A DNA stretch of 64,000 bases from an uncultured Candidatus Saccharibacteria bacterium (lineage in GTDB: Bacteria; Patescibacteriota; Doudnabacteria; UBA920): the NCBI GenBank assembly GCA_964594755.1, contig CAZQMO010000004.1:4311-68310 (forward strand). The letters run 5' to 3'. The translations under genes and the position numbers were made by a program. Shown one piece after another: positions 9,884 through 34,988 of the stretch (position 1 is its first letter; each line of letters begins with the position of its first letter). Under the pieces are notes generated by a model. The model saw only the letters and a program-made list of their open reading frames with translations. It did not search any database and was not told the DNA's origin.

Positions 9884-10096
9884 GTAAATGCTTTTCTTCA
9901 AATAACTCTCGCATTTTAACAGATTTAGGGAGTTTTGGCAAGGCTGTTGGTGCAATAAATTTATTCTGGTACATTAAATGTAATGGTAAAGCAAAGTTTT
10001 GGTTTAAGCGGCAAGCCAGTGATTCGTTCCTATCAACTTAAGCGCCGCCAAGTCATCCCGAAATCAAAAACTCAAATTCAATCTTGGCGGTTATTG

Positions 10097-10708
10097 ATGT
10101 CAGGCGTGTTTATTGCTGGAGCATTAACTGGTGTGGTAGCTATGATGGGAGATGACTATGCTGAAGCCGAGCGAGCTGCTCAGGATAGACAGAAACTAAT
10201 AGCAGGGTCTTCATCTACGGAAGCGTGGACTATGCCACTAGATTTTTCTACTGAGGACTTAGAAGTTGTCGCAGTTATGTTGCCAATTCTGATTCAAGAA
10301 ACTCGTCATGAACCTAACGCAGCGGAATTAGCGAATCAGAAGCGCAAAGACGACTTGCGAGCTTACTTCGAAAGTCGAAATAGCCCGTTTGTGGATGATG
10401 CTACCTTAGATGCATTTTTGTCTTCTAACAATATGAAGCTGATGATTGCTATTTCTTTTGTAGAGAGCACGATGGGGAAACGTTGTTACTACAATAACTG
10501 TAGCGGTATAGGTGGTTATCCGCCAAACTTGCGAAAATATGATTCTTACGCGGATTGGGTTCGCGACTTTGATTCTTTGTTAGAACGGCGTTATAAGGGG
10601 ATGGAGCCAGAAGATATGATGGGTGTGTATGTTCAGCCGGGGAGTCCGAATTGGATTAATGGTGTTCGTCAGATCTTAGCGGAATTAGAAAAACAGGGGA
10701 TTGAATAA
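10097..10708 (+). CDS. membrane-anchored glucosaminidase-like peptidoglycan hydrolase (FlgJ/Gmd-type domain), putative
   Basis: N-terminal TM helix VFIAGALTGVVAMMG; ESTMGKR...NNCSGIGGY...YDSYADWVRDFDSLLERRY fits the N-acetylglucosaminidase domain pattern (ESgwG...NNlFGi...Y.s...S..dy). Start chosen at the internal ATG. Confidence 0.5.
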   Translation: MSGVFIAGALTGVVAMMGDDYAEAERAAQDRQKLIAGSSSTEAWTMPLDFSTEDLEVVAVMLPILIQETRHEPNAAELANQKRKDDLRAYFESRNSPFVDDATLDAFLSSNNMKLMIAISFVESTMGKRCYYNNCSGIGGYPPNLRKYDSYADWVRDFDSLLERRYKGMEPEDMMGVYVQPGSPNWINGVRQILAELEKQGIE

Positions 10709-10758
10709 AAGTTTATTGTTATTTTATTTGACACAGAAAAATATTATAGTAGGATATA

Positions 10759-10780
10759 GATACCCCCCCATGGGGGGTTA
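10759..10780. promoter_or_regulatory. G/C-tract palindromic operator (CsoR/RcnR-type) overlapping promoter and RBS
   Basis: gataCCCCCCCATGGGGGGttatc is a near-perfect palindrome between the tattatagt -10-like box and the ATG of the CsoR-like gene. It resembles known RcnR/CsoR operators (e.g. TACT-G6-N-AGTA). Confidence 0.5.
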
Positions 10781-10784
10781 TCCT

Positions 10785-11051
10785 ATGACTAAAGAACAAC
10801 AAAATTTAATAAAGCGAATTAAAACAGCACAAGGTCATCTTGGCGCAATTGCCGCCATGGTCGAAAAAGACACTTACTGCATGGACATTATTAACCAGAA
10901 CCATGCTGTTATAGAAGCCTTGCGTAAAGTTAATCAGTTAATTTTGGAAGGATATTTGGGTGAGTGTGCTCTTGATGCGGTCAACCATAAAAATCCAGCC
11001 AAGCGCAAAGCAGCAGTTGCTGAGTTAGTGAAGATTTATACTAAGAAATAA
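10785..11051 (+). CDS. CsoR/RcnR/CstR-family (DUF156) transcriptional repressor
   Basis: LIKRIKTAQGHLGAIAAMVEKDTYCMDIINQNHAVIEALRKVNQLILEGYLGEC matches the CsoR-family fold signature. Ligand-position residues are C...Y...C (two Cys, no His), which is CstR-like. Stop lies 1 nt before the trxB start. Confidence 0.7.
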   Translation: MTKEQQNLIKRIKTAQGHLGAIAAMVEKDTYCMDIINQNHAVIEALRKVNQLILEGYLGECALDAVNHKNPAKRKAAVAELVKIYTKK

Positions 11052-11052
11052 T

Positions 11053-11988
11053 ATGAACGACAAAATTTACAACACAATTATTATTGGTAGCGGTCCGGCA
11101 GGCCTCACCGCCGCGTTATATGCCGGTCGAGCAGAGTTAGAGCCATTGGTTATTGCAGGATTACAACCTGGCGGTCAGTTAACTATCACAACTGATGTCG
11201 AAAATTTTCCTGGTTTCCCAGAAGGTATTCAAGGTCCAGAACTGATGCAGAAGATGACTGCGCAAGCTGAAAGATTTGGCGCCAAAATTGTTCAAGAGAA
11301 TGTAGCTAGCGTGGATTTTTCTAGCAAACCATACAAAATAAAGACAGATAGCAATGAATATCACGCCCATAGCGTAATCATCGCCACTGGTGCCGAAGTG
11401 AAGTGGCTTGGCCTGCCCAACGAAACACGTCTCCGTGGTAAAGGCGTTACTGCTTGCGCGACTTGTGACGGCTTCTTCTTTAAGGATTTAGATATCGTGG
11501 TTATTGGGGGCGGAGATAGCGCCATGGAAGAAGCATTGTTTCTAACCAAATTCGGCAAGTCAGTTACGATTGTCCATCGCCGTGATGAATTCAAGGCTTC
11601 CAAGATTATGCTCAAGCGGGCCCAAGAACACCCAAAGATTTCCTTCATCACTGATGTCACCGTGGTTGATATTTTGGGAGAAGATTCGTTTACCGGAATA
11701 AAGATCAAAGACAATAAGACCGGAGAAGAACGAGAGGTTGCAGCTGGGGGTTATTTTGTGGCCATTGGGCACTCGCCAGCGGTTCAAGTTTTTAAGGACG
11801 CCGGCGTAGAGCTGGATAGCAAGGGTTACATTGCTCAAAAACAGTTTACTCAAACAAATATAGAAGGCGTATTTGTAGCCGGAGATGTCCACGACCACCG
11901 CTACCGTCAAGCCATTTCTTCTGCAGGGGAGGGGTGTAAGGCAGCTCTTGATGCAGAGAAGTATCTTACGGAGTTAAATCAAGAATAG
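11053..11988 (+). CDS. trxB: thioredoxin-disulfide reductase
   Basis: GSGPAG FAD motif, CATCDGFF redox-active CxxC, GGGDSAMEEA NADPH motif. Confidence 0.85.
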   Translation: MNDKIYNTIIIGSGPAGLTAALYAGRAELEPLVIAGLQPGGQLTITTDVENFPGFPEGIQGPELMQKMTAQAERFGAKIVQENVASVDFSSKPYKIKTDSNEYHAHSVIIATGAEVKWLGLPNETRLRGKGVTACATCDGFFFKDLDIVVIGGGDSAMEEALFLTKFGKSVTIVHRRDEFKASKIMLKRAQEHPKISFITDVTVVDILGEDSFTGIKIKDNKTGEEREVAAGGYFVAIGHSPAVQVFKDAGVELDSKGYIAQKQFTQTNIEGVFVAGDVHDHRYRQAISSAGEGCKAALDAEKYLTELNQE

Positions 11989-12108
11989 AAGTATGTCATT
12001 CCTGGGCCCACCGCAGGTAGGAACCGGGAATCCACTAGACAGTCAAGATAATTTAATAGATCCCCGGTTCTCCTCGCTTTGCTCGGGGACCAGGGGTGAC
12101 CAAATAAT

Positions 12109-13320
12109 ATGAACAATCCCTTTGAATCAGCCAAGCGGCAACTCCAGGCAGCGGCCGACGTAGCCAACTTGGATAAAAACAAAATTGACGAATTGATGCA
12201 TCCAGACCGGTATATTGAGGTTTCAATTCCAGTACAAATGGATGACGGGTCTCAAAAAATTTTTGAAGGTTTCCGCAGTCAGCATAACAATGCCCGAGGT
12301 CCATACAAAGGGGGTATTCGTTACCACCAAGATGTAAATTTAGACGAGGTGCGCGCTTTAAGCTTTTGGATGACTTTTAAGAATGCAGTCATTGACGTTC
12401 CTTTTGGCGGAGGCAAGGGCGGCATTATTGTAAACCCTAAGGAATTATCTGAAGTTGAGTTAGAAAAACTCTCCCGCGGCTATATGCAAAAAATGTTTCG
12501 CAATTTTGGCCCGGAAATAGATGTGCCTGCTCCAGACGTAAACACTAACGGCCAGATTATGGGCTGGATGCGTAACGAGTACGAAAACCTGACCGGCACT
12601 GTCGCTCCAGGGGTGATTACTGGCAAAGCGATAGAAGATGGTGGCAGCGAGGGTCGCACCGAAGCAACTGGGTATGGCGGGGGATATGTTTTACGCGAAG
12701 CTTTGAAGGCAGGGTTAGTATCGGATGATCGCAAGACTATCGCTGTGCAAGGGTTTGGTAATGTAGCGACTTACTTGGCCGAGTATGTTAAAGAGCATGG
12801 CTTTAAGGTGGTTGCTTTATCCGACAGCAAGGGCGGAGTGTATAACGAAGCTGGTATTGATATCTCTGCGGCCGAAGCACATAAAAAGGCCACAGGCTCT
12901 TTGAATGGCTTGGAAGGTGCTACTTCTATCACCAACGAGCAGTTATTAGAACTAGATGTCGAAGTTTTGGTACCAGCGGCATTAGAAAATGTTATTACTA
13001 AAGTTAATGCTGCAAAGATTAAAGCTAAGCTGATTTTGGAAATGGCCAATGGCCCAACGACACCTGAGGCCGACCAGATTTTGCAAGATAATGGCGTTGT
13101 GGTAATTCCAGATATCTTGGCCAATAGCGGTGGCGTCTGCGTGAGTTATTACGAATGGTATCAGAATATGCATAATGAAAAGTGGGCCAAGCAGGATGTT
13201 TTGGCCAAGCTTGATGCGCAGATTACCAAGGCATTTGCAGATGTTCTCGCAGGCTCAAAACAGCATGCTACTTCACTTAGAACAGCAGCCTATATAGTCG
13301 CCGCCGAGCGAATTATCTGA
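12109..13320 (+). CDS. gdhA: NAD(P)-dependent glutamate dehydrogenase
   Basis: GGGKGG catalytic motif (PFGGGKGGI), GFGNVATY Rossmann motif, ~400 aa ELFV dehydrogenase. Confidence 0.85.
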   Translation: MNNPFESAKRQLQAAADVANLDKNKIDELMHPDRYIEVSIPVQMDDGSQKIFEGFRSQHNNARGPYKGGIRYHQDVNLDEVRALSFWMTFKNAVIDVPFGGGKGGIIVNPKELSEVELEKLSRGYMQKMFRNFGPEIDVPAPDVNTNGQIMGWMRNEYENLTGTVAPGVITGKAIEDGGSEGRTEATGYGGGYVLREALKAGLVSDDRKTIAVQGFGNVATYLAEYVKEHGFKVVALSDSKGGVYNEAGIDISAAEAHKKATGSLNGLEGATSITNEQLLELDVEVLVPAALENVITKVNAAKIKAKLILEMANGPTTPEADQILQDNGVVVIPDILANSGGVCVSYYEWYQNMHNEKWAKQDVLAKLDAQITKAFADVLAGSKQHATSLRTAAYIVAAERII

Positions 13321-13344: not shown

Positions 13345-13728
13345 TTAGACTGGCTTTTGAGTTGCGTCAATTGCTTGAACAATGAAGCGTATAGCAATGG
13401 TTGCTTTCTGTTGCTCTCTCTGTTCCAGGCAAACAAATTTTTGGCCAGCAAGAATAGCATACGGTATTTGACTGTCTAAGCGGTAAACGCTGGTGCAGCC
13501 AGGTTGCCTGATTTGCATCGTGGACTGCGTGCCACCTTGCATACACCATTCAAAGTAGTAGCGACTGGTTCTAAAGTGCACAAAGTCGCATTCGCCAAAC
13601 TGGCCGGGGTAATATTTAACAAGATCAGGATTAGCTTCAATGTCCTCCGCGATCTTATCAAGGGTGGTTATTTGCGGGCATTCCTTGCTCATAACACTAC
13701 CTCCCTGCAATTTTTTCCAGTATAGCAT
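13345..13728 (-). CDS. Cys-rich hypothetical protein (GC-elevated), likely starts at internal MSKECPQ
   Basis: Six Cys (CPQ, GECDF, EWCMQGG, PGCTS, FVCLE); no family recognised; local GC is higher than the neighbours. Confidence 0.4.
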   Translation of the reverse strand: MLYWKKLQGGSVMSKECPQITTLDKIAEDIEANPDLVKYYPGQFGECDFVHFRTSRYYFEWCMQGGTQSTMQIRQPGCTSVYRLDSQIPYAILAGQKFVCLEQREQQKATIAIRFIVQAIDATQKPV

Positions 13729-13742
13729 GTTAAAATTATTAT

Positions 13743-14657
13743 ATGTATGACGTCATAATTATCGGTGCTGGCCCAGCAGGAATGACTGCGGCCATCTACA
13801 CAGCACGAAAAAAATTAAATACTTTGGTTCTAGCTAAAGAAGCTGGTGGTCAAATGGTATGGAGCAGTGATGTCGAGAACTATACTGGTTTCAATATGAT
13901 TAGTGGTGCTGAGTTAACTTTGAAATTTCAGGAACATTTGTCTACGCTTAAAGAAGATTTAGAAGTTAAGATAGGTGTGGAGGTTGCCAGAATTGAAAAG
14001 AATATCACTAGCTTTGAAGTAAGTGACAAGCAAGGCAATCAGTATTTTGGTAAGACTGTAATTATTGCTTCTGGGAAAAACCCACGTCATTTGAACATTC
14101 CTGGTGAGAGTGAATTCTATGGTCATGGCGTGGCTACCTGCGCAACCTGCGACGCGCCTCTTTACAAAGGAAAAGATGTCGCAGTGATAGGTGGTGGAAA
14201 TTCTGCTTTGGACGCAGTTTTGGCCTTGTCCAAAGTGGCCAAAACTGTGGCGGTTGTGAATATTAATCAAGCTTTATCTGGTGATTCAATTGTCAAAGAA
14301 AAAATTGAACATTCCGGTAATGTAAAAATATATAATAACACCAAAACTTTGTCTGTTTTAGGAGAGAAGGCCGTAACAGGTTTGGAGATTCATCAATTTG
14401 GTAAAGACAAGGAAATATTGACAGTGTCTGGAGTGTTTGTGGAAATCGGCTATGAGCCAAGCATTGCTTTTGATCAACTTACTAAAAAGAATGAAAAAAA
14501 CGAAATTGTCGTGGACGGCAACTTGCAGACTAGCGTACCCGGGATTTTTGCCGCCGGCGACATCAATGACGCCTGGGGCGAACAGATTATCATTGCAGCC
14601 GGGGAAGGCGCTAAGGCCGCCATGGCCGTGAGTAACTACTTGAACAGACTGAAGTAG
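13743..14657 (+). CDS. thioredoxin reductase-like flavoprotein disulfide reductase (second paralog)
   Basis: GAGPAG, CATCDAPLY (CxxC), GGGNSALDA, and a C-terminal GD motif GDINDAWGEQ. Confidence 0.75.
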   Translation: MYDVIIIGAGPAGMTAAIYTARKKLNTLVLAKEAGGQMVWSSDVENYTGFNMISGAELTLKFQEHLSTLKEDLEVKIGVEVARIEKNITSFEVSDKQGNQYFGKTVIIASGKNPRHLNIPGESEFYGHGVATCATCDAPLYKGKDVAVIGGGNSALDAVLALSKVAKTVAVVNINQALSGDSIVKEKIEHSGNVKIYNNTKTLSVLGEKAVTGLEIHQFGKDKEILTVSGVFVEIGYEPSIAFDQLTKKNEKNEIVVDGNLQTSVPGIFAAGDINDAWGEQIIIAAGEGAKAAMAVSNYLNRLK

Positions 14658-26953: not shown

Positions 26954-28861
26954 TTAGACTAATTGGCTTTTAATGGTCTGAGCTTTAGTTTTTCCAACGA
27001 GTTTAATCAGCTCTTCAATCGGCGCGCGTTTGATTTGATCAACAGTGCCGATTTTTTGTTTGAGTAATTTTTTAGTTTTTGGTCCGATTCCTGGAATAGA
27101 ATCAAGAGCAGATTTCGTAGCCTGCTTGCTGCGCAGAGATTTATGGAAAGTTATTCCAAAGCGATGTGCTTCATCACGGAGCCGTTGCAACATTTGAAGA
27201 ACTGGGTTGTCATGACTAAGCACAATCGGTTGTGATTTACCTGGCAGAAAGATTTCTTCGATTCGCTTAGCAAGGCCAATCACAGGAATTTTTAATTTTG
27301 TATCTTTCAAAACCTGTACAGCCACTCCTAGCTGTCCTTTACCACCGTCTATTACTAATAAATCTGGTGCCGGCCAATATCCCCCTCCTTTTAAGGAGGG
27401 GTTAGGGGAGGTGTTAACCCCCTCCAGCTCCCCCTCAAGAGGGGGAGTGATACGCGCCAAACGGCGTTCTAACATCTCGCGCATCATCGCAAAATCATCT
27501 GGAGTTTGTTTCCGCGTAATTTTAAACTTTCGATATTCAGATTTAGCAGCTTGACCATCTTTAATCACCACCATACTCCCGACCGGATTGGTTCCTTGGA
27601 TGTTGCTAATATCGTAACCTTCAATGCGTCGTGGTAAATTTGGGAGTTTAAGTAGCTTCTTTAGGTTACTAAGAATTTCTTGAGTTAAGTCAGCGTTACT
27701 GGCTTGGCTACGTTGCCACTTGAGTAGATGCTCTTTGGCATTTGTTACTCCCATTTGCACAAGCTTCTGTTTCTCTCCTCGGCTTGGAATTGTGATTTTG
27801 ATCGCTTGTTTGCTTCTGGTTCGTAGTAGCTGCTCTAGCAATGAATGGTTGGGCAGTTCAGCTTGAACAAAAATGTCTGTCGGAAGATCAGTTGCCTGCG
27901 CATAATACATTTCCGTAAAAGTTTGCAGGACCTGAGCGGCTCTCTGGTCTTCGGGGATTGCCAGCATGTTGTTGTAAATAAAATTTTCTTTATCCTTAAG
28001 TTTGCCTTCCCGAACCTTAAATAGATTTACAGCCGCAGAAAGATTGTCGATGAAAACAGAGATGATGTCCCAAGAAACTTTCCGAGTCAAGACCGTAAGC
28101 TGTTTTTCTTCTAGAACGCTAATAGCCATAAATTCATCTCTCAGTCTCGCCGCTCTTTCGAATTGTTTGCGTTTGGATGCAGTCTTCATCTCTAACTGTA
28201 GCTGTTTTTTAATTGGCGCAGTCTGCCCGGATAAGAACAGAGAAATTTTCTGCAAATGCTGCTCGTATTCTTCCAAGCTCATCAATCCAATGCAGACGCC
28301 AGGACAGCGGTGCAAAAAATAATAGAAGCAGGGGCGCTTGCCGACTTCTTTGTTGGCGCAAAAATGAAAGACGCGCCTAACTAAATCCAAAGTTTGTCCA
28401 ATCTTTTTGGTAGAGGAGTACGGTCCAAAGAAGCGATCTCTGCTATCAGACTTTTTTTCTACTTTTCTGACGTAACTAATCTGCGGAATCTGGGTGCTGT
28501 GACTGATGTTTATAAATGCATAATTTTTATCATCGCGCAGCATGATATTATACGGCGGCATATACTCTTTGATGAGAGTATTTTCCAAAAACAGGCTTTC
28601 CAGTTCGCTTTGGACAACGATGTAGTCAAAATCTACCGCTTCTGCCATCAAGAAGGGAAGTTGAGGGCGATTATCAGACTTTCCGAAGTACTGTGATAGC
28701 CGAGATTTTAGCCGCTTGGCCTTACCCACATATAAAACAACTCCTTTATCATCAAGGAATTTATAAACACCGGGTTTTTGAGGGACGTCTTTAAGTTTTT
28801 CTCTCAATTGACTCATGAGTTTATTATAGCTAGAATACGCCCTAGAATAAATGGAGGGCAT
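26954..28861 (-). CDS. uvrC: excinuclease ABC subunit C
   Basis: GIY-YIG domain (GVYKFLD...VLYVGKAKRLKSRLSQY), UvrBC-binding region, RNase H-like endonuclease domain and C-terminal (HhH)2. True start may be the internal MSQLREK (28816). Confidence 0.85.
   Translation of the reverse strand: MPSIYSRAYSSYNKLMSQLREKLKDVPQKPGVYKFLDDKGVVLYVGKAKRLKSRLSQYFGKSDNRPQLPFLMAEAVDFDYIVVQSELESLFLENTLIKEYMPPYNIMLRDDKNYAFINISHSTQIPQISYVRKVEKKSDSRDRFFGPYSSTKKIGQTLDLVRRVFHFCANKEVGKRPCFYYFLHRCPGVCIGLMSLEEYEQHLQKISLFLSGQTAPIKKQLQLEMKTASKRKQFERAARLRDEFMAISVLEEKQLTVLTRKVSWDIISVFIDNLSAAVNLFKVREGKLKDKENFIYNNMLAIPEDQRAAQVLQTFTEMYYAQATDLPTDIFVQAELPNHSLLEQLLRTRSKQAIKITIPSRGEKQKLVQMGVTNAKEHLLKWQRSQASNADLTQEILSNLKKLLKLPNLPRRIEGYDISNIQGTNPVGSMVVIKDGQAAKSEYRKFKITRKQTPDDFAMMREMLERRLARITPPLEGELEGVNTSPNPSLKGGGYWPAPDLLVIDGGKGQLGVAVQVLKDTKLKIPVIGLAKRIEEIFLPGKSQPIVLSHDNPVLQMLQRLRDEAHRFGITFHKSLRSKQATKSALDSIPGIGPKTKKLLKQKIGTVDQIKRAPIEELIKLVGKTKAQTIKSQLV
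27378..27445. repeat. in-frame GC-rich triple-palindrome insertion within uvrC coding sequence
   Basis: cccctcctt-tt-aaggagggg, aggggagg...ccccctcc and ctccccc-tcaaga-gggggag encode PPLEGELEGVNTSPNPSLKGG, inserted between the conserved RRL and PDLLVIDGGKGQ positions of UvrC. Confidence 0.6.
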
Positions 28862-33213: not shown

Positions 33214-34269
33214 TTAGCCGAAAGTAAATGTAAATATTTCAATTCCTGACTCAGGCATTTCGATTTCAAGAATATGGTTACCAGCCTGCGCCTCATCATA
33301 TAGAGGATATAGATCAGAGGCGCTAATGGAAACTCCTTTTTGGAGTTTGCCATCGATATATACTTTAACTGTGATTGGTTTGGTGCTTTGCGCAACCATA
33401 AAAACTTTTGCCGCTGTAAAATTGAGGCGTAGCCGGCCGTAACCATTAGTATGGACTACCGCTTCGGGGTCAAACCGCCAGCGACCTTCCAAAGCGAAAT
33501 TGTTTTTCGCTAGTCTTTTTGGGAACGCATAAATTTGTTCACTAGGTAGCGGTTGCTCTGGACCGCCAAAGTTTTTTAATCGTAAACTACCCAAGTAAAT
33601 TTCAGGAGTACCAGCTTGGTTTTCTTCAGAAACCGGCGGTGGAGTAAATTCACCTTCTAATCCCAATAAGGTGCGAATGGCTTTTTCGGTTTGTTCGTAC
33701 TGGCCTTCACCAAAATGGGTGTAAACTATATCACCATTTTTATCTATCAAGTAATGCGCTGGCCAAAATTGATTTTGAAAAGCGCGCCAGGTGGTGTAAT
33801 TATTATCTTGCGCCACTGGATAATTGATGGAGTAGCGCTTGGTCGCGGTTTCTACATTGCTCGCTACACGCTCAAAGGCAAACTCGGGAGTATGGATTCC
33901 TAGTACGACAAATCCTTGGTCTTTATAAGTGTCATACCACTTGGTCACATAAGGTAAGGTGCGAATACAATTGATGCACGAGTAAGTCCAGAAATCTACC
34001 AATACTACTTTTCCTTGCAGCTCCGCTAAAGTTAGAGGGTCACTATTAAACCATTTTTGTAGACCAGTGAGTTCTGGCGCTGGGCCGAGGTTTTTAAAGA
34101 TAGGATTATTAATTTGGCCTGGTTCTTGTTTTGATTCAGTCACTGGTTGCTTGGCTCCGAATGATAGATTCAAAAAATTTCCTTCAGGATTGCGGTACTG
34201 TAAAAACAAACCAGAAGCAACCAATAAGACTATAAGAATTAAGATGTAGGGAAGCGCCTTTTTGAACAT
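33214..34269 (-). CDS. membrane-anchored thioredoxin-fold thiol:disulfide oxidoreductase (TlpA/ResA-like) with extra C-terminal domain
   Basis: N-terminal TM helix; WTYSCINCIRTLPYV CxxC in a redoxin fold; ~140-aa C-terminal beta-rich domain. Confidence 0.65.
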   Translation of the reverse strand: MFKKALPYILILIVLLVASGLFLQYRNPEGNFLNLSFGAKQPVTESKQEPGQINNPIFKNLGPAPELTGLQKWFNSDPLTLAELQGKVVLVDFWTYSCINCIRTLPYVTKWYDTYKDQGFVVLGIHTPEFAFERVASNVETATKRYSINYPVAQDNNYTTWRAFQNQFWPAHYLIDKNGDIVYTHFGEGQYEQTEKAIRTLLGLEGEFTPPPVSEENQAGTPEIYLGSLRLKNFGGPEQPLPSEQIYAFPKRLAKNNFALEGRWRFDPEAVVHTNGYGRLRLNFTAAKVFMVAQSTKPITVKVYIDGKLQKGVSISASDLYPLYDEAQAGNHILEIEMPESGIEIFTFTFG

Positions 34270-34988
34270 TAGCGATCAGGATTGATGAACTTAGTTTCTA
34301 GATTACCAAAATCGTAGACTTCTAAGATCTTAGTTTGCAGAACTGTATCATAGCCGAAATATATAGCTGCTGCCATTAAGATAATCAGCACTCCAAATAT
34401 TTGTTGAATGCGCACGGTATATGGGGCAATAGCTCGAACTTTTTCGGCAGCCAACTGACCGCCATAAGCAATAATTAACATTGGTAAAGCAGCTCCAATG
34501 GCATATGCAATGAGTAGAATGGACGCAGCCGCGATATCTGTTCGTGTGGCAATCAAAGTAAGAATTGATCCCAGAACTGGACCTGCACAAGGCGTCCAGA
34601 TGATTCCTAAAATTACGCCGAGAACGAAACCACCAACGTTACCATTTCCTGCACTACGACTCCATCCTGTAGCTTTTGTGGAGAAATTACTGAGGTAAGC
34701 AGTTAGTTTTTCGAATGGAGTTGGCCAAATCATCAATACTCCAAAAATTGCCAACAAAACTACAGCGATATGGCGCAAGTTATTTGGGTCAATATCTAAA
34801 GTAGTGGTGATATAGGATAGTGTTAATCCTAAAACGGCGAAAGTGATTGCAAAACCACCAGCAATGAATAGCGGCCGAGTTTTACTTCCACCAATAGAAC
34901 TGCCCAGTAAAATTGGGAGTAGGGGAAGGATGCAGGGCGCACCGATTGTTAGTACGCCCGCTAGAACTGCAAAGATAATTTCTAACAT
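34269..34988 (-). CDS. ccdA: cytochrome c-type biogenesis protein CcdA / DsbD-family thiol-disulfide transporter
   Basis: Six TM helices with paired conserved Cys (GAPCILPLLP ... WTPCAGPVLG). Confidence 0.75.
   Translation of the reverse strand: MLEIIFAVLAGVLTIGAPCILPLLPILLGSSIGGSKTRPLFIAGGFAITFAVLGLTLSYITTTLDIDPNNLRHIAVVLLAIFGVLMIWPTPFEKLTAYLSNFSTKATGWSRSAGNGNVGGFVLGVILGIIWTPCAGPVLGSILTLIATRTDIAAASILLIAYAIGAALPMLIIAYGGQLAAEKVRAIAPYTVRIQQIFGVLIILMAAAIYFGYDTVLQTKILEVYDFGNLETKFINPDR

Follow-up and report, generated by a model that had tools for sequence, protein, structure and literature searches.

CsoR-family repressors and a regulator–trxB locus

Members of the CsoR family sense copper, nickel or cobalt, formaldehyde and persulfides; no H2O2-specific member has been characterised, which limits insight into inducer specificity (2024 review). 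The Cu(I) sensors of the family (M. tuberculosis CsoR/RicR and the proteins of Geobacillus, S. lividans and B. subtilis) carry the fingerprint x-C-H-C, in which the His at the Y position is essential for Cu(I)-driven allostery and a second-shell Tyr/Glu pair is tied to it (Fakhoury et al. 2021). CstR (S. aureus, E. faecalis, S. pneumoniae) carries x-C-N-C or x-C-x-C, and its dithiol sites form DNA-releasing inter-subunit crosslinks with tetrathionate, H2O2 and persulfides. Disulfide formation likewise lowers the DNA binding of TTHA1953, a CsoR-family protein of T. thermophilus. Here we describe a CsoR-family regulator encoded directly before the thioredoxin reductase (TrxR) gene trxB in a 64,000-nucleotide stretch (the window) of contig CAZQMO010000004.1 from an uncultured Candidatus Saccharibacteria bacterium. 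The regulator is probably an autoregulated thiol switch that releases trxB, or trxB together with the glutamate dehydrogenase (GDH) gene gdh, upon oxidation or persulfidation of a cysteine pair. We hold the assignment of repressor, operator and operon with high confidence, and consider it fairly likely that thiol chemistry is the signal. The core of the locus comprises the following features.

10728–10733, plus strand: −35 box TTGACA of the regulator–trxB promoter (promoter scan)
10750–10755, plus strand: −10 box TAGGAT, separated from the −35 box by a 16-nt spacer (promoter scan)
10759–10782, unstranded: operator palindrome GATACCCCCCCA-TGGGGGGTTATC, 24 bp, with the core CCCCCCCATGGGGGG at 10763–10777
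10785–11051, plus strand: regulator open reading frame (ORF), 88 residues, PF02583
11053–11988, plus strand: trxB1, 311 residues, TIGR01292

The locus was compared with 37 loci of 8 kb each, one per GTDB species, whose regulators are 56–100% identical to that of the window. Residue conservation was counted over the 120 closest homologues (121 sequences with the query), and 38 promoters were aligned, anchored on the palindrome. The cysteines Cys32 and Cys61 are invariant in all 121 sequences. In 37/37 species the regulator is preceded by a 15-bp C5-7/N/G5-7 core flanked by A/T, within intergenic DNA that has otherwise diverged. An orthologue of trxB1 (59–100% identity) directly follows the regulator on the same strand in 36/36 informative loci, the contig of the 37th ending early. 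In the window the regulator stop codon TAA (11049–11051) is separated from the trxB ATG at 11053 by a single nucleotide. The operon proposed in an earlier annotation made from the letters of the window (hereafter the sequence-only reading) is borne out by the relatives; among them the gap has a median of ~22 nt and is ≤60 nt in 25 loci. A thiol switch is the most likely reading because the Cys pair, the operator and trxB are what stays constant, because the majority of the regulators lack the His for Cu(I) release, and because dithiol crosslinks are known.

Family membership and DNA-contact residues of the regulator

The regulator matches PF02583 (CsoR/RcnR/FrmR, DUF156) over residues 4–85 with E = 1.9e-20 and 73.5 bits, against a gathering cut-off of 22.8, which confirms its earlier placement in the DUF156 family. 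The AlphaFold2 model of the monomer consists of three helices (residues 3–28, 30–67 and 71–86; pLDDT 88.7; pTM 0.46), and the three-helix protomer is shared with the Cu(I) CsoRs of the same Pfam family. A Foldseek search with this model returned no significant match (FrmR stood second, at E ~1), a lone protomer being a poor query in a family of obligate dimer-of-dimers tetramers.

The best similarities among PDB and NCBIfam entries are to MtCsoR, GtCsoR and RicR. The Cu-CsoRs give E = 1e-10 (MtCsoR) to 2e-7; the structures aligned were 2hh7 (M. tuberculosis CsoR), 4m1p and 4adz. CstR was represented by the S. pneumoniae protein (7mq1) alone, compared by E-value. The RicR model yields 47 bits, and the protein stays far under every named NCBIfam cut-off, including those of RicR, FrmR and RcnR. 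An identity as RcnR/InrS or FrmR was rejected: their models score 24 and 20 bits where 133 and 138 are required, and the N-terminus M-T-K-E, with Tyr at Y and Cys at Z, does not match the reference fingerprints, which are H-C-H-H or H-C-H-C with an N-terminal His for RcnR/InrS and Pro2-C-H-x for FrmR.

The identical protein and its close relatives are confined to Patescibacteria (candidate phyla radiation, CPR) assemblies labelled Saccharibacteria or Doudnabacteria. The clade stands apart in a search of 1.84 billion cluster representatives, where two score 162 and 142 bits and the third falls to 96. The clade looks like an offshoot of copper-type CsoRs and not like a relative of the known CstRs, because the best scores are against copper sensors, the next-best proteins are nearly all C-H-C, the wedge Asn is lacking and the second-shell Tyr/Glu pair is kept.

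Besides the sensor residues, R11, G17, H18, Y31, Q38, H40 and E80 are invariant or nearly so. In the S. lividans protein, DNA is contacted by an RLXR motif in helix 1 (R54/R57) and a Gln of helix 2 (Q81) (Tan et al. 2013). The equivalents of the first Arg and of the Gln, R11 and Q38, are conserved, as in the Cu(I) CsoRs; the second Arg is not.

The sensor site

Alignment with 2hh7 places the copper ligands C36/H61/C65 of MtCsoR on Cys32/Tyr57/Cys61 of the query, and the second-shell residues Tyr35 and Glu81 on Tyr31 and Glu80. The Cys-Tyr-Cys arrangement given by the sequence-only reading for the ligand positions is therefore correct, with residue numbers (C32/Y57/C61) one above those it implied. 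At position 57, 111–112 of the 120 closest homologues have Tyr, 8–9 have His and one has Trp; of the 37 species, 12 have His. Lack of the His does not characterise the orthologous group as a whole. Tyr57 is always paired with Glu60 (GYLGEC), and His57 is accompanied by Val, Ile, Ala or Ser at position 60 (GHLG[VIAS]C). The His forms fall in one subclade of a neighbour-joining tree of 80 columns, which does not settle whether His or Tyr is ancestral, and they keep the identical operator type and the trxB neighbour. The wedge Asn was never seen at position 57 in the 121 sequences.

We also note an extra cysteine, Cys23, in helix 1 (…KAVCKMIE…) of many members of the His57 subclade and of L019, a Tyr57 form (loci L018, L019, L030, L038 and L043; proteins P0056, P0060, P0065, P0105 and P0108). 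The window protein lacks it.

The site raises the question of a sensor of Cu(I) or another thiophilic metal, in which Tyr57/Glu60 would be a variant metal site and trxB would be induced since copper stress oxidises thiols; we regard this as an improbable but real rival. The full C-H-C fingerprint in 12/37 orthologues, the nearly invariant second shell (Y31 in 120/121 and E80 in 119/121 sequences), the similarity to MtCsoR, GtCsoR and RicR, and an operator type identical with that of CopZ/CopA-linked CsoRs among the metagenome matches listed are what such a sensor would lead one to expect. However, the His that Cu(I)-driven allostery needs is missing from the Tyr57 form, that is, from 111/121 close homologues and 25/37 species, and the scores lie far under the cut-offs of the RicR, FrmR and RcnR models. 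In the 37 loci the regulator always has trxB beside it and never copA, copZ or another metal-efflux gene.

The operator and its promoter

The two arms of the palindrome are complementary at 11 of 12 positions. In the light of the relatives, C6-N3-G6 is the better description of the site. The spacer in the window is CAT, which gives the left tract the appearance of seven C; in a near-identical metagenome-assembled genome (MAG; L001/L007) the spacer is ATA. The 64-kb window contains a single copy of the 15-nt core. At ≤3 mismatches the sole other match, the site itself and reverse-strand readings aside, lies inside uvrC, and dinucleotide-preserving shuffles give a mean of 0.25 such matches. This C/G palindrome at 27430–27445 was rejected as a second operator, having no A/T flanks, and none was found upstream of trxB2. 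In its own right, uvrC (26954–28861, minus strand) contains three GC-rich hairpin-forming repeats at 27385–27447, within the coding sequence of the UvrC endonuclease domain and in an AT-rich genome; they read CCCCCTCC…GGAGGGG, GGGGAGG…CCCCCTCC and CCCCCTC-AAG-AGGGGG.

The consensus of the aligned promoters is A-(G/T)-A-CCCCCC-NNN-GGGGGG-T-A-T. The core is present in 38/38 of them and the flanking positions A(−10), A(−8) and T(+8) are conserved, A(−8) in 36/38 and T(+8) in 37/38. Sites of this kind are nearly absent from the remainder of the 8-kb loci. The sequence-only reading had taken the palindrome for a G/C-tract operator of the family and had named its absence from orthologous promoters as the finding that would tell against this; it is present in all 37. 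The comparison makes a strong case that the palindrome is a conserved CsoR-family operator and not a chance occurrence.

The position of the site fits a repressor. The window promoter is sigma-70-like and matches 10/12 consensus positions in the promoter scan; TTGACA lies at an equal distance from the operator in nearly all 37 related loci, and the −10 boxes of the relatives are mostly TATACT-like, compared with TAGGAT in the window. Over the 38 promoters the distance from the site centre leftward is ~40–45 bp to TTGACA and ~17–22 bp to the TATACT-like box. The operator begins ~7 nt past the −10 box, at a fixed distance in the relatives, and therefore lies at the predicted transcription start, the classic position for a repressor.

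Seven nucleotides separate the end of the G tract from the regulator ATG, so that this tract is the only Shine-Dalgarno-like sequence of the window promoter. The overlap with the ribosome-binding site reported by the sequence-only reading is thus real and specific to the lineage of the window; elsewhere the operator lies ~20–340 nt upstream of the aligned coding start. It also brings up the explanation that the palindrome acts mainly in the RNA, as a C6/G6 hairpin at the 5' end, either stabilising the mRNA or hiding its ribosome-binding site. A transcript from the predicted start at ~10762 would begin with a hairpin of −12.9 kcal/mol that includes this Shine-Dalgarno-like sequence, and one compensatory T-A change is found at an inner position in L026. 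Nevertheless, stem sequence and polarity are fixed in 38 promoters with no G-first stems, and the outer 4–5 stem positions show no A-U or other substituted pairs. The A/T flanks are kept, and breaks in the inner pairs are frequent (L034–L036, L040). The fixed stem, the kept flanks and the broken inner pairs therefore point to a constraint that is specific to sequence and not to structure. The site cannot mask the ribosome-binding site in most species because it lies well upstream of the start codon there, and the motif accompanies CsoR-family genes in unrelated taxa among the metagenome matches listed and resembles published CsoR operators. An RNA element is accordingly very improbable. A terminator was also rejected, since the palindrome has no T-run, lies downstream of a promoter and is not listed in the terminator scan; a search against Rfam gave three tRNAs in the window and no RNA family at the palindrome.

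Type-2 CsoR operators consist of two G/C tracts within A/T-rich inverted repeats, such as TAC-C4-N-G4-GTA in S. lividans (Tan et al. 2013). The window site is a long-tract form of this type, with 15 bp between the flanks in place of about 9–11 bp. A gene-blind scan of public metagenome contigs for AKACCCCCCNNNGGGGGGTA returned at least 120 stretches, in which other taxa dominate. Among the 120 matches listed, a CsoR-family gene lies within 500 nt in 29, and 34 more lie at contig ends; the motif is enriched beside genes of the family. Two of these 29 CsoR-adjacent sites, among the matches listed, belong to the CPR trxB type. Those of the rest that were looked at closely go with proteins 35–45% identical to the regulator, with the copper fingerprint (…NHLN[ST]C…). 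The operator type is uninformative about the inducer.

Three observations concern the DNA to the left of the operator. The gene upstream of the regulator (9983–10708, plus strand) encodes a 241-residue protein with no significant family match, relatives of which are found by tblastn at the same place in about half of the related loci. The interval between this gene and the regulator (10709–10784) measures 76 nt in the window and holds no terminator; in L001 (CAZQZS010000001.1, 5711–6000), the near-identical MAG, it measures ~290 nt and holds a terminator hairpin. The window thus comes from a close relative of that MAG and not from the same assembly. In eight loci (L014, L016, L017, L019, L021, L029, L038 and L039) the −35 box, here ~45 bp to the left of the operator, sits inside a perfect palindrome TTGACA-NN-TGTCAA, and the opposite strand carries a mirror-image −10 box. 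The divergent gene at these back-to-back promoters encodes a conserved membrane protein of ~90–110 residues with no Pfam match, and the arrangement is absent from the window.

Target genes and gene neighbourhood

The CxxC pair is the redox site of thioredoxin reductases and HRRxxxR their NADPH-binding motif. TrxB1 scores 399.6 bits against the cut-off of 343.45 of TIGR01292, the thioredoxin-disulfide reductase equivalog, and its translation shows the CATC redox site and the NADPH-type motif HRRDEFKAS. The genes that follow it in the window are listed below.

11989–12108, plus strand: structured intergenic insert between trxB1 and gdh, 120 nt, with no T-run; minimum free energy −45.8 kcal/mol
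12109–13320, plus strand: glutamate dehydrogenase gene (gdh); Pfam ELFV_dehydrog, NCBIfam GdhA-type match
13345–13728, minus strand: ORF of 127 residues with 5 Cys, no family match
13743–14657, plus strand: trxB2, a TrxR/AhpF-like paralogue with CATC, below the TIGR01292 cut-off

The gdh gene follows trxB1 on the same strand in 32/37 loci, within 200 nt in about 17, and in several species the two genes lie 1–4 nt apart or overlap slightly. It is the probable third gene of the regulator–trxB1 unit, and the tight linkage suggests that a source of NAD(P)H for TrxR is expressed along with it. The trxB1–gdh gap is ≥700 nt in 14 loci, of which 13 were examined. A flavokinase-like gene (~130 residues) occupies it on the same strand in L014, L015, L017, L020, L023, L029, L032, L034, L035 and L039–L041, followed in most of them by a gene for an EamA-family transporter (~310 residues); a Pfam check on the L015 pair gave PF01687 for the former and the EamA family for the latter. 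In L018 the gap holds, judged from sequence, ORFs resembling riboflavin/lumazine synthase in place of the flavokinase. Genes for flavin supply thus appear to be linked with TrxR, itself a flavoenzyme.

The 120-nt insert is restricted to the closest relatives (L001/L007 and L008) and may be a small mobile or repeat element; a 24-nt piece of it recurs in L001 at 11398–11421. Both genes that the sequence-only reading placed further downstream, a Cys-containing ORF and a second trxB paralogue, are present. The former has no Pfam or NCBIfam match and would be 115 residues long with Met13 as its start, which is the gene call in L001. It separates gdh from trxB2 and is found among the 37 loci in L007 and L008 only, as a lineage-specific insertion. 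TrxB2 scores 296.6 bits against the TIGR01292 cut-off of 343.45 and has PDB matches to TrxR and AhpF. It keeps CATC, and VNINQALSG replaces the HRRDEFKAS of TrxB1, so that the HRRxxxR motif is lost; its reductant may be other than NADPH. A trxB2-like gene was seen in 15 loci, lying ≤150 nt after gdh in 7 of them.

Elsewhere in the window (33214–34988, minus strand) the gene for a CcdA/DsbD-type membrane electron transporter (PF02683) stands immediately before one for a redoxin/thioredoxin-like protein with WTYSCINC (PF08534, PF17991). The pair looks like an envelope thiol-reducing pathway and would rely on cytoplasmic thioredoxin and TrxR.

Comparison with CstR, Cu(I) CsoR and TTHA1953

The sequence-only reading had called the regulator CstR-like and not CsoR-like. 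The part of this that stands is that the window protein, like CstR, has two Cys at the sensor positions and no His. The step from there to a CstR-like protein has only partial support: His stands at the Y position in one third of the orthologues, which keep the operator and trxB, the similarity to Cu-CsoRs (E = 1e-10) exceeds that to S. pneumoniae CstR (E = 2e-5), Y31/E80 are kept, the wedge Asn that marks Firmicute CstRs (2024 review) is lacking, and an equal operator type precedes C-H-C CsoRs beside CopZ/CopA. Nor is there a sulfide-detoxification neighbourhood: none of the 37 loci contains a gene for a rhodanese/sulfurtransferase, persulfide dioxygenase, sulfide:quinone oxidoreductase, CoA-persulfide reductase or TauE.

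The same neighbourhood bears on whether the regulator is strictly a sensor of persulfides or other reactive sulfur, a functional CstR. TrxR would then be induced as the thioredoxin system reduces protein and low-molecular-weight persulfides in habitats that are often sulfidic. The x-C-x-C pattern of the window protein is the signature of all three candidate reactive sulfur species clusters in a published sequence similarity network analysis, actinomycete x-C-x-C members likewise have no wedge Asn (2024 review), and thioredoxin-like proteins are reported to reduce protein persulfides (PMC6196236). With no CstR-type sulfur gene in any locus, a sequence nearer to Cu-CsoRs than to S. pneumoniae CstR, and His57 orthologues that have the same target, we consider such a strict sensor rather unlikely. 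Chemistry alone does not tell the oxidant from the persulfide option because CstRs also react fast with H2O2 in vitro. General oxidant or disulfide stress and reactive sulfur are inseparable from sequence, and the neighbourhood favours the former.

With the Cu(I) CsoRs the regulator shares the Cys pair at X and Z, the second-shell Tyr/Glu, and an autoregulated pseudo-palindromic operator of two G/C tracts inside A/T flanks, like that of S. lividans. It differs from them in having Tyr with Glu60 for the ligand His, trxB(-gdh) and not copZA as its target, longer operator tracts (C6-N3-G6), and a clade of its own, with the drop from 142 to 96 bits at its edge. TTHA1953, a regulator of Sox genes, is similar in being a CsoR-family protein whose disulfide lowers DNA binding and which controls neither metal-efflux nor classical cst genes; it differs in an operator that has no G/C tracts of four or more and in targeting distant sulfur-oxidation genes and not an adjacent trxB.

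Proposed mechanism

In the mechanism that we propose, one or more reduced tetramers would bind the C6-N3-G6 operator at the start site of the strong sigma-70-type promoter. Binding would repress the regulator gene and trxB1, in most species gdh, and sometimes the flavokinase, the transporter or the second TrxR-like gene. The signal would be modification of the inter-subunit pair Cys32–Cys61', either as a disulfide or as a persulfide-derived di-, tri- or tetrasulfide link, by analogy with the DNA-releasing Cys–Cys' crosslink of CstR. This modification would lower the affinity for DNA and derepress the operon. Together with thioredoxin, and perhaps fed with NADPH by GDH, the induced TrxR would bring thiols back into balance and return the sensor to its reduced state, thereby closing a negative feedback loop.

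Thiol-switch control of thioredoxin systems with feedback is familiar from RsrA–SigR in Streptomyces, OxyR and Spx. As in the logic proposed here, the oxidised sensor induces trxB and the thioredoxin system re-reduces the sensor. The folds are unrelated, being those of an anti-sigma factor, a LysR-type activator and an RNA polymerase-binding protein, in contrast to a CsoR-type repressor at the start site.

Several observations weigh against this mechanism. The copper-type features are prominent: one third of the species orthologues have the full Cu(I) fingerprint, the second shell of the Cu-CsoRs is kept, the similarity to S. pneumoniae CstR is weaker than to the Cu-CsoRs, the nearest proteins outside the clade are nearly all C-H-C CsoRs, and, among the metagenome matches listed, several C-H-C CsoRs with this operator stand before CopZ-like and CopA-like genes. 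In the RLXR motif, Thr or Tyr takes the place of the second Arg, which is not conserved. The transcription start at ~10762, at the left edge of the operator, is a prediction. No thioredoxin gene was found in the window or the loci; that search led only to the extracytoplasmic redoxin protein of the window and to unrelated metagenome loci with thioredoxin-like genes. Finally, we infer the inducer from the target gene and the residues only. Thiol-based control of trxB is nonetheless the best hypothesis, mainly on account of the conserved target gene and not of a resemblance to CstR.

Implications for the CsoR family and for Patescibacteria

What is new here is the target, the residue pair at the Y position and the extended operator; the regulator belongs within a known family and is not a new kind of system. 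In our literature search, no paper tied the CsoR family to CPR bacteria or to the control of trxB. The regulator is a good candidate for the first CsoR-type protein devoted to thiol or oxidative stress rather than to metals or sulfide detoxification. A well-conserved, discrete subfamily with TrxR as its only constant target makes a concrete candidate for the gap of an H2O2 sensor. More tentatively, the clade might be the missing sensor of oxidant and disulfide stress in the family, a redox repressor governing in CPR bacteria a self-contained repair module of NADPH-type TrxR, NADPH-generating GDH and, in some of them, flavin-supply genes. If this is true, the exchange of His57/Val60 for Tyr57/Glu60 would show that the choice of inducer in dithiol CsoRs is independent of the Y-position ligand. 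Tyr/Glu and His/Val versions that control the same operator and gene amount to a natural experiment, and the regulator is a cheap and well-defined biochemical target.

For the organisms, the system would add to a short list of stress regulons predicted in Patescibacteria, ultra-small bacteria with very few regulators and, for most lineages, no genetics. The linkage of trxB with gdh, and in some species with a flavokinase, gives a hint of how reduced genomes may power the thioredoxin system.

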